Made by a program: the position numbers and the translations under genes. Under the pieces are notes generated by a model, which saw only the letters and a program-made list of their open reading frames with translations, was not told the DNA's origin and did no database searches. Source: an uncultured delta proteobacterium (GTDB lineage: Bacteria > Myxococcota_A > UBA9160 > SZUA-336). Taken from it: DNA of 64,000 nucleotides. This document shows, in pieces, positions 27,994 to 34,634 of this stretch. The stretch covers positions 32,001-96,000 of the forward strand of contig CAVPHD010000003.1 in assembly GCA_963704165.1 (NCBI GenBank), written 5' to 3'. How positions within the stretch are numbered: the first letter of the stretch is position 1; every line of letters starts with the position of its first letter.

Positions 27994-28728
27994 TCACCCG
28001 GTCTCTCTGGCACGGCGGCGCCCGTACTCGATCCATGCCATGACTGAAAGCGCACCGACGGTGAACCAGAGAAGCGCATAGCCGCGGTGATCCACGGGAC
28101 TCACGGGCCGAGCCGGCTCCCCGATCGGAAGTCCGCCCGACTCGGGCTCGACCGATTGCACCATGACCGCCGCGAGCCGATACGGAACCTGGCCGTTGAG
28201 CTTCGCGACGAGACTCGGACGATCGGGGCTGAAGCGCGGGAAGTGCGTCCGACGCTGCGCGCGAGAGCCGGGAACCGCTTCACGCAGCGCAAGCGGAAGC
28301 ACGAGCCCGGTCACGGTCATCACAGCGCCCTCTCCGGTCTCCGTCGGCATGAAACGCGGCGTTTCCGCCTGTGGAATCCATCCGCGATCGACGAGCACCC
28401 GTGGGGCGTCCGCTGACTCGCCTTCTCGGTGGAGCGGCGTGAACACGCGCGCACCGAGCGCATGGCCTCGCTCCACGGGCCCGACCAGGATCGTATCGGA
28501 AAGCTCGAGCCGGCCGCGGATCGTGGTGCGGCGGAACGCGTAGCCGTCCGGCTCCTTCCCAGCCTCCGCGATCTCGACCGACGGCAGCTCGATCCTCGCG
28601 CTCTTCTCGGCGAGATCCGCCGTGCGCCAGAGATGACGGCGAACCTGCCAGGTGCCGAGCGAGCAGAACGCGAGCACAGCGACGAGCGTGATCACCGTGG
28701 GGCCGCGGCCGGGACGAAAACCGGACAC
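27994..28728 (-). CDS. SURF1/Shy1 family oxidase assembly protein
   Basis: LGTWQVRR, VFTPL, VLVDRGWIP, HRGYALLWF. Confidence 0.92.
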   Translation of the reverse strand: MSGFRPGRGPTVITLVAVLAFCSLGTWQVRRHLWRTADLAEKSARIELPSVEIAEAGKEPDGYAFRRTTIRGRLELSDTILVGPVERGHALGARVFTPLHREGESADAPRVLVDRGWIPQAETPRFMPTETGEGAVMTVTGLVLPLALREAVPGSRAQRRTHFPRFSPDRPSLVAKLNGQVPYRLAAVMVQSVEPESGGLPIGEPARPVSPVDHRGYALLWFTVGALSVMAWIEYGRRRARETG

Positions 28729-28734
28729 AGCGTC

Positions 28735-29571
28735 TCAGGACCGCGCCGAAGTCGCGCCCGCGACCTCGGCGATCTCATCGCGCATCTGCGCGACGGGCTG
28801 CTCGAGTCCGAGCCAGCGCCTGGCGATCCGTCCGCCTCCATCGACGAGGAAGGTCGCGACCACGTGATCGATGTTCCCGTCCGAGGCTCGCAGCGTACCG
28901 ATCCCCCAACGGCGAACGACGTCCGCCACATCCGTCTCCGGTCCCGTCAGGAAGGACCAGCCCGACAGATCGACGCCGCGCGCACGGGCATACGCATCGA
29001 GGACGTTCGGGGTGTCGTAGGCAGGATCGAGCGAGATCGAGACGAAGCGCACGCGTTCGCGCAGGTCGGGCGAGAGCATGCGCTGCAACTCGACGTGGCG
29101 GGACGTCAGGATCGGACACGGGCCCGTGCACCGCGTGAAGATGAAATCGACGACCAGGATCTCGCCCGACAGATCGCCGAGCGAGACGCGCTGCCCCGTC
29201 TGGTCGATCAGCGAGAAGTCCGGAGCCTTCTCGCTCTGGCGCAGGGTCGAAGCGAGGGATGGCGCGCGCGAGGCGCCGCTTCGCGATTCGGCTTTGCGCA
29301 CGGCGATGATCCGATAGCTCCGCTCCGTGACCTCGAGGTCGAACTCGATGTGTTGCCCCGGCGAGAGCTTCGCGAGCACGGCCGGATCGGGAACGCTGAA
29401 GCTCATCGTCATCGCGGACATCAGTCCCGGGATCTCGTCGTGCTCGATCCGGGCTTGCCCGTTCTCGGCATCCACCTCGTGAACGACACCGTGAACCGTG
29501 TACACGCGGCCGCCCCCGCAGCCGAGAAGAGCCGCGAGCAGCGCGACGACGAGTACGCCGCGAGCGGTCAA
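28735..29571 (-). CDS. Lipoprotein with a CusF-like copper-binding domain fused to a SCO domain
   Basis: Lipobox LLGC; HDEIPGLMSAMTMSF; FTRCTGPCP (CxxxC) and DH; start approximate. Confidence 0.85.
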   Translation of the reverse strand: MTARGVLVVALLAALLGCGGGRVYTVHGVVHEVDAENGQARIEHDEIPGLMSAMTMSFSVPDPAVLAKLSPGQHIEFDLEVTERSYRIIAVRKAESRSGASRAPSLASTLRQSEKAPDFSLIDQTGQRVSLGDLSGEILVVDFIFTRCTGPCPILTSRHVELQRMLSPDLRERVRFVSISLDPAYDTPNVLDAYARARGVDLSGWSFLTGPETDVADVVRRWGIGTLRASDGNIDHVVATFLVDGGGRIARRWLGLEQPVAQMRDEIAEVAGATSARS

Positions 29572-29584
29572 GACGCCAGGGGTC

Positions 29585-29860
29585 TCAGGCAATCGTCCGG
29601 CCGTGCTCGGGCGCAGCTGCCATCGCGATCTCTCCAGAGGCGGCTTCGGATTCGAGCTGTCGCGCGCGGCCGCGGAGCCAGTACACCAATCCACCGACGA
29701 GGCCGAGCGGCAAGAGGCTCATGAAGGCGGTGGCGATCAGGTACGCGATCTGCACGCTCTCGTCCTGCGCGGCGATGCAGAGCGGGCACGCGGCGGCCGC
29801 GAGCGGACTCGACAGCACCAGCGCGAACGCGGCGAGTGAGGCTTGGGCTTTACCCGTCAT
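29585..29860 (-). CDS. Small membrane protein with signal peptide and CPLC motif (91 aa)
   Basis: MTGKAQASLAAFALVLSSPLAAAACPLC...TM; ATGA overlap with the upstream subunit III gene. Confidence 0.75.
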   Translation of the reverse strand: MTGKAQASLAAFALVLSSPLAAAACPLCIAAQDESVQIAYLIATAFMSLLPLGLVGGLVYWLRGRARQLESEAASGEIAMAAAPEHGRTIA

Positions 29861-30453
29861 GCCAGATAGACCCTCCAGTACAGGATCGGCCAGACGCCCA
29901 CGACGAAGTACCAGAAGATCTCCGCCGAGGCCAGCGTCGACCGCGGGACCTCCCCCTGGCCCATTCGCATCCACACCCAGCCGAGCACGCCGAGCGCGAT
30001 CACCGCGTGCAGAGCGTGGAGCCCGACGATCAGGAAGAAGAAACTTCCCAGCGCACTCGAGCTCAGCGTCAGCCCCCCCGCCAGAAGCGAGAGCCACTCG
30101 CGACCCTGCAGCAGTACGAAGCCCGAGCCGAAGATGAGCGCCCCGAGCAGAAGCGTCCGCGCCATCTCCGGTCGGGTCCGGTGACGCCGGATCGCGACGA
30201 AAAGCAGCGCTCCGCTCGCGAGCAGGAGGCTGGAATTGAACGCGGTCTCGGCGATCGGCAGTCGCGGTTGGTCGAGCGGCGGCCAGATCACGGCCGAGCC
30301 GCGCATGATCGTGAATGCCGACACGAATCCGGCGAAGAACATCAGCTCCGTGATCACGAAGATCAGCATCGCGAACACCGAACTCGGCAGGAGTTGGGTT
30401 CGGGCCGAAGTTCGTGGAGCTCCTCGCTGGTGCAGGGGGATGGGCGCGACCAA
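29857..30453 (-). CDS. Cytochrome c oxidase subunit III (second copy)
   Basis: FVITELMFFAG, NSSLLLASG, GLHALH, FWYFV. Confidence 0.9.
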   Translation of the reverse strand: MVAPIPLHQRGAPRTSARTQLLPSSVFAMLIFVITELMFFAGFVSAFTIMRGSAVIWPPLDQPRLPIAETAFNSSLLLASGALLFVAIRRHRTRPEMARTLLLGALIFGSGFVLLQGREWLSLLAGGLTLSSSALGSFFFLIVGLHALHAVIALGVLGWVWMRMGQGEVPRSTLASAEIFWYFVVGVWPILYWRVYLA

Positions 30454-30465
30454 AGAGCAGGTCTC

Positions 30466-30855
30466 CTAGTGTGCTTCCTCGTGAACGTGTTCTGCTCCGG
30501 CGGTGGCCGGTTCGTCCGACGAGGTCGCTCCGTCCATCCACGCCGGCTTGCTCCAGTACCGGCCGTGCGATTCCATCACGTCTGCTGCGGTGCCGGCGAA
30601 GAAGAGGAGCATGAACAGCAGCATGGTCGCGATGATGTAGGCCACGAACTTCGGAGCCACGTCGATGTGCATGAAGTTCTTGACGACGAGGTACGCCTTG
30701 ACGACCGCGACTCCGAAGGCGGTGACCAGCGTGACTGTCTTGATCTCGAGCATCGGTCCGGCAACGCTGACGATCAGAAGCACGAGCAGAACCGCCCAGA
30801 TCTTCACGTAGTTCGGGTGGTGAGCGTGCTCCGCGTGGGATGCGTGATCCGTCAT
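30466..30855 (-). CDS. Cytochrome c oxidase subunit IV family
   Basis: Three TM helices, AVVKAYLVVKNFMH, His-rich N-terminus. Confidence 0.88.
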   Translation of the reverse strand: MTDHASHAEHAHHPNYVKIWAVLLVLLIVSVAGPMLEIKTVTLVTAFGVAVVKAYLVVKNFMHIDVAPKFVAYIIATMLLFMLLFFAGTAADVMESHGRYWSKPAWMDGATSSDEPATAGAEHVHEEAH

Positions 30856-30865
30856 CTGAAGGCTC

Positions 30866-31447
30866 CTACTTCGCGATGTAGAGAAGGGGGAAGAGGAAGA
30901 TCCAGACGACGTCGACGAAGTGCCAGTACAGTCCGATCAACTCGACCCGCTGCAGCTCGAGGTTCTTTCGGGCAGTCTTCGCGATGAAGCCCATGATGAT
31001 CACGCCGGCGATGACGTGCGCCGCGTGAATCCCCGCCGCCGTGTAGTAGAACGACCAGAAGGTGTTCGAGGCGATCGTGAAGCCGTGCTGGATCTCGTTG
31101 GTCCACTCGAAGGCCTTCACGGTGATGAAGATCAGGCCGCCGCCCATCGTGTACAGGAGAAGGCGAGCTGCCTTCGGACCATCGCCCGAATCGGCCGCCT
31201 TGTGGGCGAGCACGGCCGAGAGACTCGACGTCAGCAGCACCAGGGTGTTGAAGGCGCCGATCCAGGTATTCGTGTGCGCGGCTTGCTCCGCGAACGCGTC
31301 GTGCGCGAGCCGGTGCATGATGTACGAGCCGAGAAGTCCGCCGAAGATCACGATCTCCGACGCGATGATCCACCAGACGGCCAGTCGTCCGGTGGGCATT
31401 CCCGTGACACTGCGTCCGGTCGCGATCGGTCGGCTTGCTGCGGTCAT
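30866..31447 (-). CDS. Cytochrome c oxidase subunit III (first copy)
   Basis: WIIASEIVIFG, NTLVLLTSS, GIHAAHV, LYWHFVDVVWIFLFPLLY. Confidence 0.93.
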   Translation of the reverse strand: MTAASRPIATGRSVTGMPTGRLAVWWIIASEIVIFGGLLGSYIMHRLAHDAFAEQAAHTNTWIGAFNTLVLLTSSLSAVLAHKAADSGDGPKAARLLLYTMGGGLIFITVKAFEWTNEIQHGFTIASNTFWSFYYTAAGIHAAHVIAGVIIMGFIAKTARKNLELQRVELIGLYWHFVDVVWIFLFPLLYIAK

Positions 31448-31464: not shown

Positions 31465-33168
31465 CTAGCTCGGCACGTTCTGCGGCCAGAAGTCGTCTTT
31501 GCGGTCGGGAACGCTGTACTCGTACGGGCCGCGATACACCGTCGGGAGTTCGGCCCAATTCCCGTGTGGGGGCGGCGAGTCGGTCGTCCACTCCAGCGTG
31601 TTGGCGAGCCACGGGTTCTTGTCGGCCTTTCGACCCCAGAGCAGGCTCGACGCGAAGTTGTAGAGAAACACGAGCTGGAATCCGAGCATGATGATGAGCG
31701 AGATCGTCGCGAACTGGCGCATCGCCTCCATCATCGGCGACGAGAGCTCCGGGAAGTTCGTGTAGTCGAAGATACGCCGGTGATCACCGAGCACACCCGT
31801 GGCGAAGAGCGGGATGAAGATCCCGTTGAACGCGATGAACGTGCCCCAGAAATGGATCTTCCCGAGCGTCTCGTTCATGTGCTTCCCGAACATCTTCGGG
31901 AACCAGAAGGTGATCCCCGCGAAGGTTCCGATGATCGCGATCGGGAAGAACGTGTAGTGGAAATGCGCGAGCACGAAATAGGTGTCGTGCAGATAGATGT
32001 CCGACCCGCTCGAACCGAGGAAGATGCCCGTGACACCTCCGACGAGGAACGTGGCGATGAAGCCGAGCGCCCAGAGCATGGGCGTGCTGAGGGTGATCGA
32101 GCCACCGTAGAGCGTGGCGATGAAGACGAACATCATCTCGGCGATCGGAATCGAGATGATCAGCGTCGTCACCGTGAAGATGTTCGCCATGCGCGGATCG
32201 ATGCCCGCGACGAACTGGTGGTGCGCCCAGACGAAGAACGAGAGGATCCCGGTCGCGATCGCCGTGTTCACGACCGTCTTGTACGCGAAGAGCTTCTTGC
32301 GCGAGAAGACGGTGATGATCTCGGCCGTGATTCCGGTCGCCGGCAAGAGCACCACGTAGACCTCCGGGTGCCCGAAGAACCAGAACATGTGCTGCCAGAG
32401 GATCGGGTCGCCGCCGCGATTCGGATCGAAGAACGCGGTGCCGAGCTGCTGGTCGAAGAGCATCATGATCGCGCCCGCGATCAGGGGTCCCACGGACGCC
32501 ATGAAGACGATGCTCGCGATCACGATCATCCAGACCACGATGGGGACGTCGGTGTACTTCATGCCGGGGGCGCGCGCGTTCATGGCCGTCGTGACGAAAT
32601 TGATTCCGCCGAGCAGGAACGCCACGAACTCGAGCGCGATCGCAATCAGGAAGACCGAGGATCCGGTTCCCGTCAGGCTGTACTCTTCCTTGGCCATGAG
32701 CGGCGGATACATCGTCCACGCGCCCGCAGCGCCGCCACCGTCGACGAAGAACGAGACGAAGAGCACGACGGCCGACAGCAGGAAGATCTGGTAGGAGAGG
32801 CGATTGATCTTCGGGAATACCATGTCGTCGGCGCCGATCATCAGCGGGATCAGGTAGTTCCCGAATGCCGCGATCAGCACCGGCATCGCCACCCAGAAGA
32901 TCATGATCGCGCCGTGGTTGGTGACGAGCATGTTGTAGTCGGACGGCGTGACGAGACCCCAACCGGGAATGCTCATGCCGGGGTACGCCATCTGCATCCG
33001 GAACACGTACGAGAAGAAGCCCGCGACGATCGCGAGCGCCATCCCCGTGAACATGTACTGGAAGCAGATGATCTTGTGATCGGTCGAGAGCAGGTAGTGC
33101 CGGACCCACGATTCGCGCGCGTGATGCGCACCGTGGTCGTGCCCGTGCTCCGCGTGTTCGACGGCCAT
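31465..33168 (-). CDS. Heme-copper oxidase subunit I, A-family-like with atypical proton channels
   Basis: STDHK, TNHG, DMVFPKIN, GHPEVY, WAHH, HDTYFVLAHFHY, RR. Confidence 0.95.
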   Translation of the reverse strand: MAVEHAEHGHDHGAHHARESWVRHYLLSTDHKIICFQYMFTGMALAIVAGFFSYVFRMQMAYPGMSIPGWGLVTPSDYNMLVTNHGAIMIFWVAMPVLIAAFGNYLIPLMIGADDMVFPKINRLSYQIFLLSAVVLFVSFFVDGGGAAGAWTMYPPLMAKEEYSLTGTGSSVFLIAIALEFVAFLLGGINFVTTAMNARAPGMKYTDVPIVVWMIVIASIVFMASVGPLIAGAIMMLFDQQLGTAFFDPNRGGDPILWQHMFWFFGHPEVYVVLLPATGITAEIITVFSRKKLFAYKTVVNTAIATGILSFFVWAHHQFVAGIDPRMANIFTVTTLIISIPIAEMMFVFIATLYGGSITLSTPMLWALGFIATFLVGGVTGIFLGSSGSDIYLHDTYFVLAHFHYTFFPIAIIGTFAGITFWFPKMFGKHMNETLGKIHFWGTFIAFNGIFIPLFATGVLGDHRRIFDYTNFPELSSPMMEAMRQFATISLIIMLGFQLVFLYNFASSLLWGRKADKNPWLANTLEWTTDSPPPHGNWAELPTVYRGPYEYSVPDRKDDFWPQNVPS

Positions 33169-33170
33169 CG

Positions 33171-33857
33171 CTACTCCCCTACACCGGACGACGAGCTGTG
33201 AGACGTGATCCAGGCGGCGTGAGCCTCGGGTGTCTCGATCACGACACGGCCTGGCATGAGCGCGTGCCCGACTCCGCAGATCTCGGCGCACTGGATGTCG
33301 TGCTCGCCGGTCGCAATCGGCTTGAACCAGCCTTTGACCACGCGACCGGGAATCGCGTCCTGCTTCAGCCGGAAGACCGGAACCGAGAAGCTGTGGAGAA
33401 CGTCGCGCGACTCGAGGTGGAACTCGTAGGTCTTCCCGACCTGCAGGTGCAGGTCATCGACCGTGCGGATGTCGTCCGCCGTGTCGAGCCGACCGTCGGC
33501 GCCCGCATGGACGAAGCTCCAAGCCCACTGCTGGCCGACGATGCGCACGGATTCGTCCGTCGGCGGCATGTCTTGCTTGACGATGTACCAGACACGGACG
33601 GCGACGACGAGAATCACGACGTCGCACACCAGCACGAGGTAGTGCGGGATGTTGATCCACTTCTTCTCGGACTTCAGCTCCCCGGTGATGTACTGAGCCG
33701 GCACGCCGTCGCGCTTCTTGAAGCGCACGATGAGCCAGACGAAGATCACCTCGACGAGGACGAACCAGAACACGATCACGACCCAGAAAATCAGATCGAT
33801 GATGAAATCTACGTTCGCGGCATAGCTCGAGATCGCGGGAACCCATCTCTCGATCAT
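33171..33857 (-). CDS. Heme-copper oxidase subunit II (CuA)
   Basis: Two TM helices, GQQWAW, DVLHSF, KQDAIPG, CAEICGVGHALM. Confidence 0.95.
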   Translation of the reverse strand: MIERWVPAISSYAANVDFIIDLIFWVVIVFWFVLVEVIFVWLIVRFKKRDGVPAQYITGELKSEKKWINIPHYLVLVCDVVILVVAVRVWYIVKQDMPPTDESVRIVGQQWAWSFVHAGADGRLDTADDIRTVDDLHLQVGKTYEFHLESRDVLHSFSVPVFRLKQDAIPGRVVKGWFKPIATGEHDIQCAEICGVGHALMPGRVVIETPEAHAAWITSHSSSSGVGE

Positions 33858-33864
33858 TCTCGCC

Positions 33865-33978
33865 TCACTGCTTCAAGATGACGAAGTAGAAGGCCGCCGC
33901 GACCCAAGCCACGATGCTCGCTGCGGTGATGGCGTAGACCCGCCACGCCAACTCCTCTGCCGAGTACGACTTCGCCAT
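33865..33978 (-). CDS. 37-aa single-TM peptide in the oxidase operon
   Basis: MAKSYSAEELAWRVYAITAASIVAWVAAAFYFVILKQ; GGAG RBS; fills the gap between the cytochrome c gene and subunit II. Confidence 0.75.
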   Translation of the reverse strand: MAKSYSAEELAWRVYAITAASIVAWVAAAFYFVILKQ

Positions 33979-33980
33979 CG

Positions 33981-34634
33981 CTACTGCGCTCCTCCGATCT
34001 TGGCCCCGGGCAGCGTTCCGATGTGAGCGAGGACGTCCTTGATCGCCTGCTCGTCGGCGAGCAGCATCGACATGGCGCGCATGGCCGCGCCCCCGACGTC
34101 GCGCGGATCGCTGCCGCGGATGCCCTGCTGATAGTTCCTGATCTGGGTGAACTGGTACCAGTCGCTGGTGTGGCTGAGCGCCGGACCGCCGACGGGCTCC
34201 ACGCCCTCTCCACCGAGCCCGTGACAGCCGGAGCAGGTCGCGTAGAGGGCCGCGCCCCGGGTCGGATCACCTCCGACCAGGATCGGTGCGGGGCGGACCC
34301 GGGGAAGCGCCGCGATGTACATCGCGGCGGACGAAACGTCGGCGTCGGTCTTGAGCCACCGGGCCATCGGTCGCATGCGCATTCCGCCGAGGTCGTCGAA
34401 GTGACTCGCGCGCACGCCGTCCTTGAAGTTGTGCAGCTGCTTCTCGACGTACCAGCGGTCTTGTCCGGCGATCGAGGGCGCGAGGAACATCGGATTCCCA
34501 CCGCCGTCGGCACCGTGGCAGGCCGAGCAGAACTTGTAGAGCTCGGCTCCGCGCTCGGCCGTCTGAGCCTGAACCGGAGCCGCGAGCAGTGTCCCAAGGA
34601 TCGCCAGGATCACGAGGATCGGCCGGTGCCTCAT
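33981..34634 (-). CDS. Periplasmic di-heme cytochrome c (c4-like)
   Basis: Signal peptide ending AQA; CSACH and CSGCH; APSIAGQ..Y..KQL..F pattern; Met ligand candidates. Confidence 0.92.
   Translation of the reverse strand: MRHRPILVILAILGTLLAAPVQAQTAERGAELYKFCSACHGADGGGNPMFLAPSIAGQDRWYVEKQLHNFKDGVRASHFDDLGGMRMRPMARWLKTDADVSSAAMYIAALPRVRPAPILVGGDPTRGAALYATCSGCHGLGGEGVEPVGGPALSHTSDWYQFTQIRNYQQGIRGSDPRDVGGAAMRAMSMLLADEQAIKDVLAHIGTLPGAKIGGAQ

Follow-up and report, generated by a model that had tools for sequence, protein, structure and literature searches.

An A1-derived heme-copper oxidase lacking the canonical K proton channel in an uncultured delta proteobacterium

Introduction

It has long been asked why the A-family heme-copper oxidases depend on two proton channels, and the K362M mutant of Rhodobacter sphaeroides is the textbook demonstration of the need for the K channel. 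The A family is treated as two-channel (PMC11214002), and its A1 type is defined by the motif XGHPEVY (PMC8361435). In an ordinary A1 enzyme, the K path supplies the protons for the O to E and E to R steps, leading from a Glu of subunit II through Ser, Lys, and Thr to the active-site Tyr (PMC8361435), and the K362M change fully blocks the oxidase activity of the R. sphaeroides enzyme, while the peroxidase activity is not blocked (PMC7601700). Here, we analyze an oxidase locus in a stretch of 64,000 nucleotides (hereafter, the window) from an uncultured delta proteobacterium (GTDB lineage Myxococcota_A; UBA9160; SZUA-336), namely positions 32,001 to 96,000 of contig CAVPHD010000003.1 in assembly GCA_963704165.1. 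Its subunit I gene (31465-33168; 567 amino acids; all features described here lie on the minus strand) encodes an A1-type protein with GHPEVY that lacks the counterparts of K362, T359, S299, and S365.

Related systems have been described. The a-III subtype is defined by a doublet of subunit III (PMC6431628) and is listed as having a K channel (PMC8239418). Loss of the Lys within the A family is itself already published for many lineages, and 44 of the 113 representatives that we placed in a tree are K-less too. The published K-less or “modified K-channel” oxidases, among them the Acidithiobacillus rus-operon COX and enzymes of Thioclava, Elusimicrobia, Methylacidiphilum, Halobacteriovorax, and Marsarchaeota, share with the window enzyme an HPEVY subunit I in which the Lys is replaced by a hydrophobic residue (PMC8239418).

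A scan of GTDB matched 597 stretches, 583 of which were confirmed as relatives, and 80 of these 583 related loci were analyzed. They come from the Myxococcota, Gemmatimonadota, Eisenbacteria, Latescibacterota, Binatia, Sericytochromatia, and others, and all are titled as metagenome-assembled genomes (MAGs). Residue counts refer to 87 paired loci, that is, the window and 86 loci in which both subunit I and subunit II are nearly complete; L043/G022 is not included here, is counted in the cassette and in the PF00115 survey of 50 genomes, and carries no claim alone. No cultured member is named among two lists of 120 homologs each, the 80 loci, or a plasmid collection, in which all 1080 records are below 60% identity.

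Loss of the K channel in subunit I

Subunit I was aligned with HMMER to the R. sphaeroides structure 1M56 (1m56_A), with helices VI to IX gap-free at an offset of 17. In helix VIII (IISIPIAEMMFVF; 32122-32160), I342 (codon ATC, 32143-32145) takes the place of T359, M345 (ATG, 32134-32136) that of K362, and V348 (32125-32127) that of S365, with S339 and E344 at the positions of A356 and I361. In helix VI, A282 (GCC, 32323-32325) takes the place of S299, and Ser is found there in one of the 87 loci. The alignment and the codons thus bear out, at these positions, the four substitutions that an earlier note on this DNA had read from the sequence. Its companion statement, that subunit I keeps the six His ligands, the cross-link Tyr with GHPEVY, and the entry of the D channel, also agrees with the alignment: H85, H267, H316, H317, H402, H404, and Tyr271 are invariant in the paired loci, and GHPEVY is invariant there and in 120/120 of the nearest homologs. 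The counterparts of R481/R482 and H411/D412 (R. sphaeroides numbering) are kept as well.

The substitutions recur throughout the relatives. Position 342 is Ile in 116 of the 120 nearest homologs and Val in the other four, position 345 is Met in 119 and Leu in one, and position 282 is always Ala; among 120 homologs of a Gemmatimonadota member, position 342 is Ile in 107 and Val in 13, and position 345 is Leu in 112 and Met in eight. Neither Lys nor Thr was found at the lost K-channel sites in these 240 homologs or in the paired loci, and in helices VI to IX of the paired loci the surroundings of the Lys position are likewise free of Lys, Arg, and His. In other words, the homologs do not restore the Lys. 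Because the positions of K362, T359, and S299 read Met, Ile, and Ala, with no Lys in the homologs, subunit I, judged from its sequence, is A1-derived and not a canonical two-channel A1 enzyme.

Two of the altered codons are only one base away from the canonical ones, as would be expected if the loss were a sequencing error or the mark of a decaying gene. Against this, the same residues are found in the 240 homologs and the paired loci of several phyla, the match has no internal stop, and the ratio of nonsynonymous to synonymous substitution rates (dN/dS) of subunit I is 0.11, 0.13, and 0.22 against three near relatives, so that we give this explanation practically no weight. The predicted structure of subunit I has a mean predicted local distance difference test score (pLDDT) of 84.7 and a template modeling score (TM-score) of 0.85 to 1M56.

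Distribution and phylogeny of the clade

A quick IQ-TREE run with 36 rows gave the clade a starred support of 100 and its crown a support of 100. A basal grade (L024 and L129-L131) lacks the Lys, the Thr, E344, and a His of subunit II (H72), and it carries E180 and S339 of subunit I and D79 of subunit II; two loci that nest in the crown, L009/L011, lack both E344 and H72. On this tree, therefore, E180, S339, and D79 arose with the loss of the Lys, and the E344/H72 pair is a later gain that can disappear again. The homologs, the loci, and the tree all support what the earlier note had suspected, namely a subfamily that is natural and conserved and does without the canonical K channel.

The clade belongs to a group of 25 rows (Shimodaira-Hasegawa-like approximate likelihood ratio test, SH-aLRT, 99) that also contains CoxN (a-III), K-bearing enzymes with PSAIK, and a K-less lineage with LAHPEVY; the tree gives no supported branching order within this group. 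Of 150 cluster representatives, 113 had enough coverage for a fast tree (44 K-less and 69 K-bearing; two long rows were dropped in the test on independent pairs), on which the Lys state requires at least seven changes.

Some side observations concern these lineages. The K-less LAHPEVY lineage, which has PSVII and an identity of about 40%, is a starred clade in its own right and was seen at L155:585-5767 (G062), L138 (G090), L145 (G073), and L162 (G068); in G062, its gene adjoins a divergent gene similar to cytochrome bd subunit I, about 5 kb from a clade operon, and a bd-like match is adjacent in G090 too. Some genomes have two clade copies, as in G079 (L159 and L160), where one has Thr and one has Glu at position 373. 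Loci L045 and L065 both come from one Eisenbacteria MAG.

Genome content and substrate

The earlier note had left room for a changed substrate such as peroxide or nitric oxide (NO), and some observations do point that way: the K362M mutant retains peroxidase activity and loses oxidase activity (PMC7601700), a diheme cytochrome c is fixed in the gene cassette, and the host has denitrification genes. The host genome (G000; 84% complete) has three PF00115 matches, that is, the clade enzyme, a Tyr-less enzyme linked to CuA, and one similar to quinol-dependent NO reductase (qNOR); a heme A synthase is present, and no match to cytochrome bd was found in it. The Tyr-less gene (L002:846-3132, on G000:C7), accompanied by a CuA subunit II and SCO and lying near a cytochrome b match, is one that we take to be eNOR-like. 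A denitrification cluster at about 190600-226200 of G000:C4 brings together nirK, the gene similar to qNOR, and three matches to cytochrome d1; a nosZ-like match in this cluster is split over several frames and lies below the cut-off, a break that may be an assembly error.

The enzyme itself speaks against such a substrate. It keeps Tyr271 and the three CuB His residues and has no FeB Glu, whereas the NO reductases (cNOR, qNOR, and eNOR) lack the Tyr and have Glu or other non-heme ligands (PMC11214002). Moreover, eight of the 50 locus genomes have no PF00115 match other than this enzyme, among them G047, where the locus is part of a 4.74 Mb record with the title “chromosome 1”. The same holds for three genomes of stated completeness, G069 (92%), G080 (95%), and G087 (96%). 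In these 11 genomes, no match to cytochrome bd or nirK exceeded the cut-off (six of the 27 genomes tested have nirK), no nirS was found at E ≤ 1e-20 in a search that did detect G000, and no alternative oxidase (AOX) was found in a search that had no positive control. Heme A synthase is present in all 11, as in 27/27 genomes examined.

The clade enzyme also appears to stand in for the ordinary aa3 oxidase rather than to be added to it. We typed 41 relatives by subunit I (G060/G061 through coordinates identical to those of L014/L020, and G053/G070 from partial genes): 32 have the clade enzyme, eight have a K-bearing A-family enzyme, two have both, and three have neither (Fisher p 4.5e-4, a value overstated by kinship). 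Within the host genus (12 genomes), eight have the clade enzyme, four have a K-bearing aa3, and none has both. A K-bearing A enzyme is encoded in 10 of the 50 locus genomes, and a partial gene for one in an eleventh. Matches of about 400 bits proved to be cbb3 in 5/5 tested and are found beside either enzyme type. Since the clade enzyme appears to displace the ordinary aa3 among relatives, it very probably reduces O2; with the Tyr and CuB ligands kept and the enzyme the only heme-copper match in 11 genomes, a change to H2O2 or NO as the substrate in place of respiratory O2 reduction is not favored and seems improbable.

The D channel and the route of protons

The D channel, which the earlier note had taken to be intact, is so at its entry and not in its upper part. 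D132, N121, N139, N207, S142, Y33, and E286 (R. sphaeroides numbering) are kept, and all of these except S142 were scored as invariant in the paired loci. In helix IV (32617-32631), the serine zone S197/S200/S201 has been rewritten to E180, A183, and F184, a combination found in 120/120 nearest homologs; E180 and F184 occur in 87/87 loci and in 120/120 homologs of either list, and A183 in 86/87 loci. The Ser at position 197 is variable among ordinary enzymes too. S197D is said to uncouple pumping; a literature search on this mutant came back empty, and we do not use it as evidence. The serine zone below E286 has been described as holding an excess proton, and enzymes with S200I or S200V/S201V still pump, although slowly (PMC4321873).

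We favor, with a probability of about 0.45, the reading that the locus encodes an intact A1-type oxidase that would be the main aa3 O2 reductase of its host and would draw all four chemical protons through the remodeled D channel. For the D-only proton route alone, given O2 reduction, we see about an even chance. CuA would receive its electrons from the diheme cytochrome c and hand them on to heme a and then to the heme a3-CuB site. E180, in the serine zone below E286, may act as an added proton-holding site, so that protons for the reductive half of the cycle, too, could come through the D channel, a double duty that may cost pumping. S339 may replace T359 in hydrogen bonding near the Tyr, and the E344/H72 pair would be a later, dispensable addition at the interface between helix VIII and subunit II. 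The K-less oxidases of iron oxidizers have likewise been proposed to work with the D channel alone (10.1101/2020.03.01.968255).

An acid in helix IV is found in 18/44 K-less and 0/69 K-bearing cluster representatives, nearly all of these 18 belonging to the clade and one Lys-to-Gln lineage. As a general companion of Lys loss, it was rejected on independent pairs (0.6 of 5, p 1). The Lys-to-Gln lineage (the P0157-P0266 group, PSGxQ; 15/113 representatives) has a Glu one position after E180 and often a Glu at N207, a possible case of convergent acidification of the D channel.

Gains in helix VIII, helix IX, and subunit II

Subunit II (33171-33857) has an intact CuA motif, and its ligands H155, C190, C194, H198, and M201 are invariant. 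The earlier note held that its helix 2 lacks the Glu at the mouth of the K channel. For the window protein this fails, as the quoted motif started two residues late: E64-K-K-W67-I-N-I-P71 aligns gap-free to R. sphaeroides E101-I-A-W-T-I-V-P, and E64 (33666-33668) corresponds to E101. For the clade as a whole the claim largely holds, a Glu being present in only 15/87 loci. The same helix carries H72 (33642-33644), eight residues past the E101 position, and the invariant D79 (33621-33623), which by alignment lies about two turns further toward the periplasmic end.

In subunit I, E344 adjoins the K362 position. We presume that A356 of R. sphaeroides touches heme a3 and that I361 faces subunit II; nothing on the geometry of I361 was found in the literature searched. 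E344 is present in 81/87 loci and H72 in 78/87, with both in 78, neither in six, E344 alone in three (L005/L008/L010, in which no substitute His was found elsewhere), and H72 alone in none. Position 373 in helix IX (L390) is Glu in 74/87 loci and Thr in the window protein. As a replacement for the lost Lys, E373 is therefore rejected for the window protein.

These residues could form a rerouted K-type path, in which protons from the cytoplasm would cross the interface of helix VIII and subunit II by E344 and H72, mostly also with E373, to S339 and Tyr271. The placement of E344 and H72 favors it, and so does the way in which the two travel together, E344 never having been lost where H72 was kept and L009/L011 having lost both within the crown. 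However, both residues are missing from six K-less members, and H72 is missing from three more that keep E344, so that the pair is no general replacement; the co-loss amounts to about one event plus the ancestral state, and the window protein has Thr at 373. We regard this path as rather unlikely. A broader picture, a multi-phylum aa3 family in which a cross-subunit acid-histidine relay (E344/S339 of subunit I with H72/D79 of subunit II) would replace the K channel in the sole terminal oxidase of its hosts, is doubtful.

Alternatively, the reductive-phase protons might be taken up from the periplasm through D79 of subunit II, T335 (T352), and S339 to Tyr271, with less energy conserved. D79 and S339 are each present in 87/87 loci, basal grade included, T335 is invariant there as well, and D79 lies on the periplasmic side of H72. 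Ser or Thr at the A356 position occurs in 26/44 K-less vs 1/69 K-bearing representatives, but on independent pairs the trend is not significant (3.3 same, 0.2 opposite, and 1.5 without difference, of 5; p 0.25). T335 is found in ordinary enzymes too, and the wasted charge separation would be costly for a sole terminal oxidase. Such uptake is, in our view, distinctly unlikely.

The D-only route is favored over these paths by the distribution of the residues: E180 is in every paired locus, including the basal grade, whereas E344 is absent from 6/87 and E373 from 13/87, the window protein among the latter. Several points weigh against it. It requires a still hypothetical compensation for a block of the K362M type (PMC7601700), and it does not explain D79 of subunit II, which is as invariant as E180. 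The S201-to-Phe change could narrow the D channel rather than aid it, the link of the helix IV acid with Lys loss disappears on independent pairs, and 26 of the K-less representatives lack the acid. As to the role of the enzyme as the main O2 reductase, the host has nirK, nirS-like, qNOR-like, and eNOR-like genes, the absences rest on incomplete assemblies, and the relatives are not independent. Finally, the clade members in the two homolog lists and the 80 loci are known as genes, and every source named for them is a MAG.

Gene organization and annotation of the locus

The start codon of subunit I was chosen among candidate ATG codons by homolog length, because close homologs are mostly 563-571 amino acids long. 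Upstream of subunit II lie the gene of the diheme cytochrome c (33981-34634; PF00034 twice, two CxxCH motifs, and a signal peptide), which is the likely electron donor to CuA and is matched in 75 loci (74/80 related loci and the window's own), and the gene of a 37-amino-acid membrane peptide (33865-33978) with one helix, no Pfam match, and counterparts in 9/80 related loci. Downstream of subunit I follow a first, short subunit III (30866-31447; PF00510), a caa3-type subunit IV (30466-30855; TIGR02229 over the cut-off, and PF03626), a second subunit III (29857-30453; PF00510), and a 91-amino-acid membrane protein (29585-29860; no Pfam match) with a CxxC behind a signal-like N-terminus. This protein is a near-fixed part of the cassette, its CxxC is kept in 56/56 homologs recovered from the loci, and it is possibly a copper or assembly factor. 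The order cytochrome c-II-I-IIIa-IV-IIIb-small CxxC protein is found in most of the 80 loci. A CusF-SCO fusion, a copper chaperone with an uncertain start codon (28735-29694; PF11604 and PF02630), and the assembly factor SURF1 (27994-28728; PF02104) complete the locus; an SCO-like match occurs in few related loci. A promoter scan of the locus gave no sites, and terminators did not exceed the chance level.

It should be mentioned that many members, in fact of the A1 type, carry the NCBI name “cbb3-type cytochrome c oxidase subunit I”. For MAGs of the Myxococcota, Gemmatimonadota, and Eisenbacteria, such a label would give a wrong picture of oxygen affinity and energy yield.

Comparison with known systems

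The nearest annotated relatives, at 43-45% identity, are the a-III enzymes, the CoxMNOP-like “alternative” oxidases of Chelatococcus and of Burkholderia plasmid loci (L084 and L085). They share with the window locus the subunit III doublet, subunit IV, and an upstream cytochrome c, and they fall in the same supported group of 25 rows. However, CoxN keeps PTAxK and the Ser at S299 and lacks E180, whereas the window enzyme shows the opposite, and the gene order is III-III-IV in a-III and III-IV-III in the window locus. CoxN and the clade are separate starred clades at a fork that gives no support for a sister relation. Thus, of the features of a-III, the doublet is present, and the K channel and the grouping with CoxN are not.

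As for the published K-less enzymes, no row with the Y/A/M/I/V/E pattern of the clade was found in the tables of PMC8239418, none lists the taxa of the clade as K-less, and most of the bacterial rows retain Thr or Ser at T351. From these residue patterns, we infer that the clade may have originated separately from those enzymes, whose sequences stand outside our trees. The available text of supplement 2 of PMC8239418 contains none of the terms “Myxococc”, “Latescibacter”, “Eisenbacter”, and “Sericytochromatia”; clade members could be hidden in the Gemmatimonadetes subtype of that paper, for which the K channel is given as “generally yes”. No paper on the clade was found in the literature searched, in which coverage of subscription journals was thin. 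The clade is a real and widespread, apparently unstudied K-less branch of the A1 oxidases.

The A1 aa3 oxidases of R. sphaeroides (1M56) and Paracoccus denitrificans (1AR1) have the same fold (TM-score 0.84-0.85) at about 37-38% identity, and they have in common with the window enzyme the six His, GHPEVY, the D-channel entry, R481/R482, H411/D412, and a CuA subunit II. The window enzyme differs from them in lacking K362, T359, S299, and S365, in the changes S197E, S200A, S201F, A356S, I361E, M335Q, and L426P, in the His and Asp of subunit II helix 2, and in its two short subunit III genes. With the R. sphaeroides mutant K362M (PDB 3OM3) it shares a Met at the K362 position. That mutant, however, is a single change on a normal enzyme and loses its oxidase activity, whereas the natural enzyme combines the Met with about ten accompanying changes. 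The clade thus bears a K362M-like substitution naturally and yet seems to replace the ordinary aa3 oxidase, and it supplies candidate compensating changes for K362M, namely S197E, S200A, S201F, A356S, I361E, and the His and Asp of subunit II.

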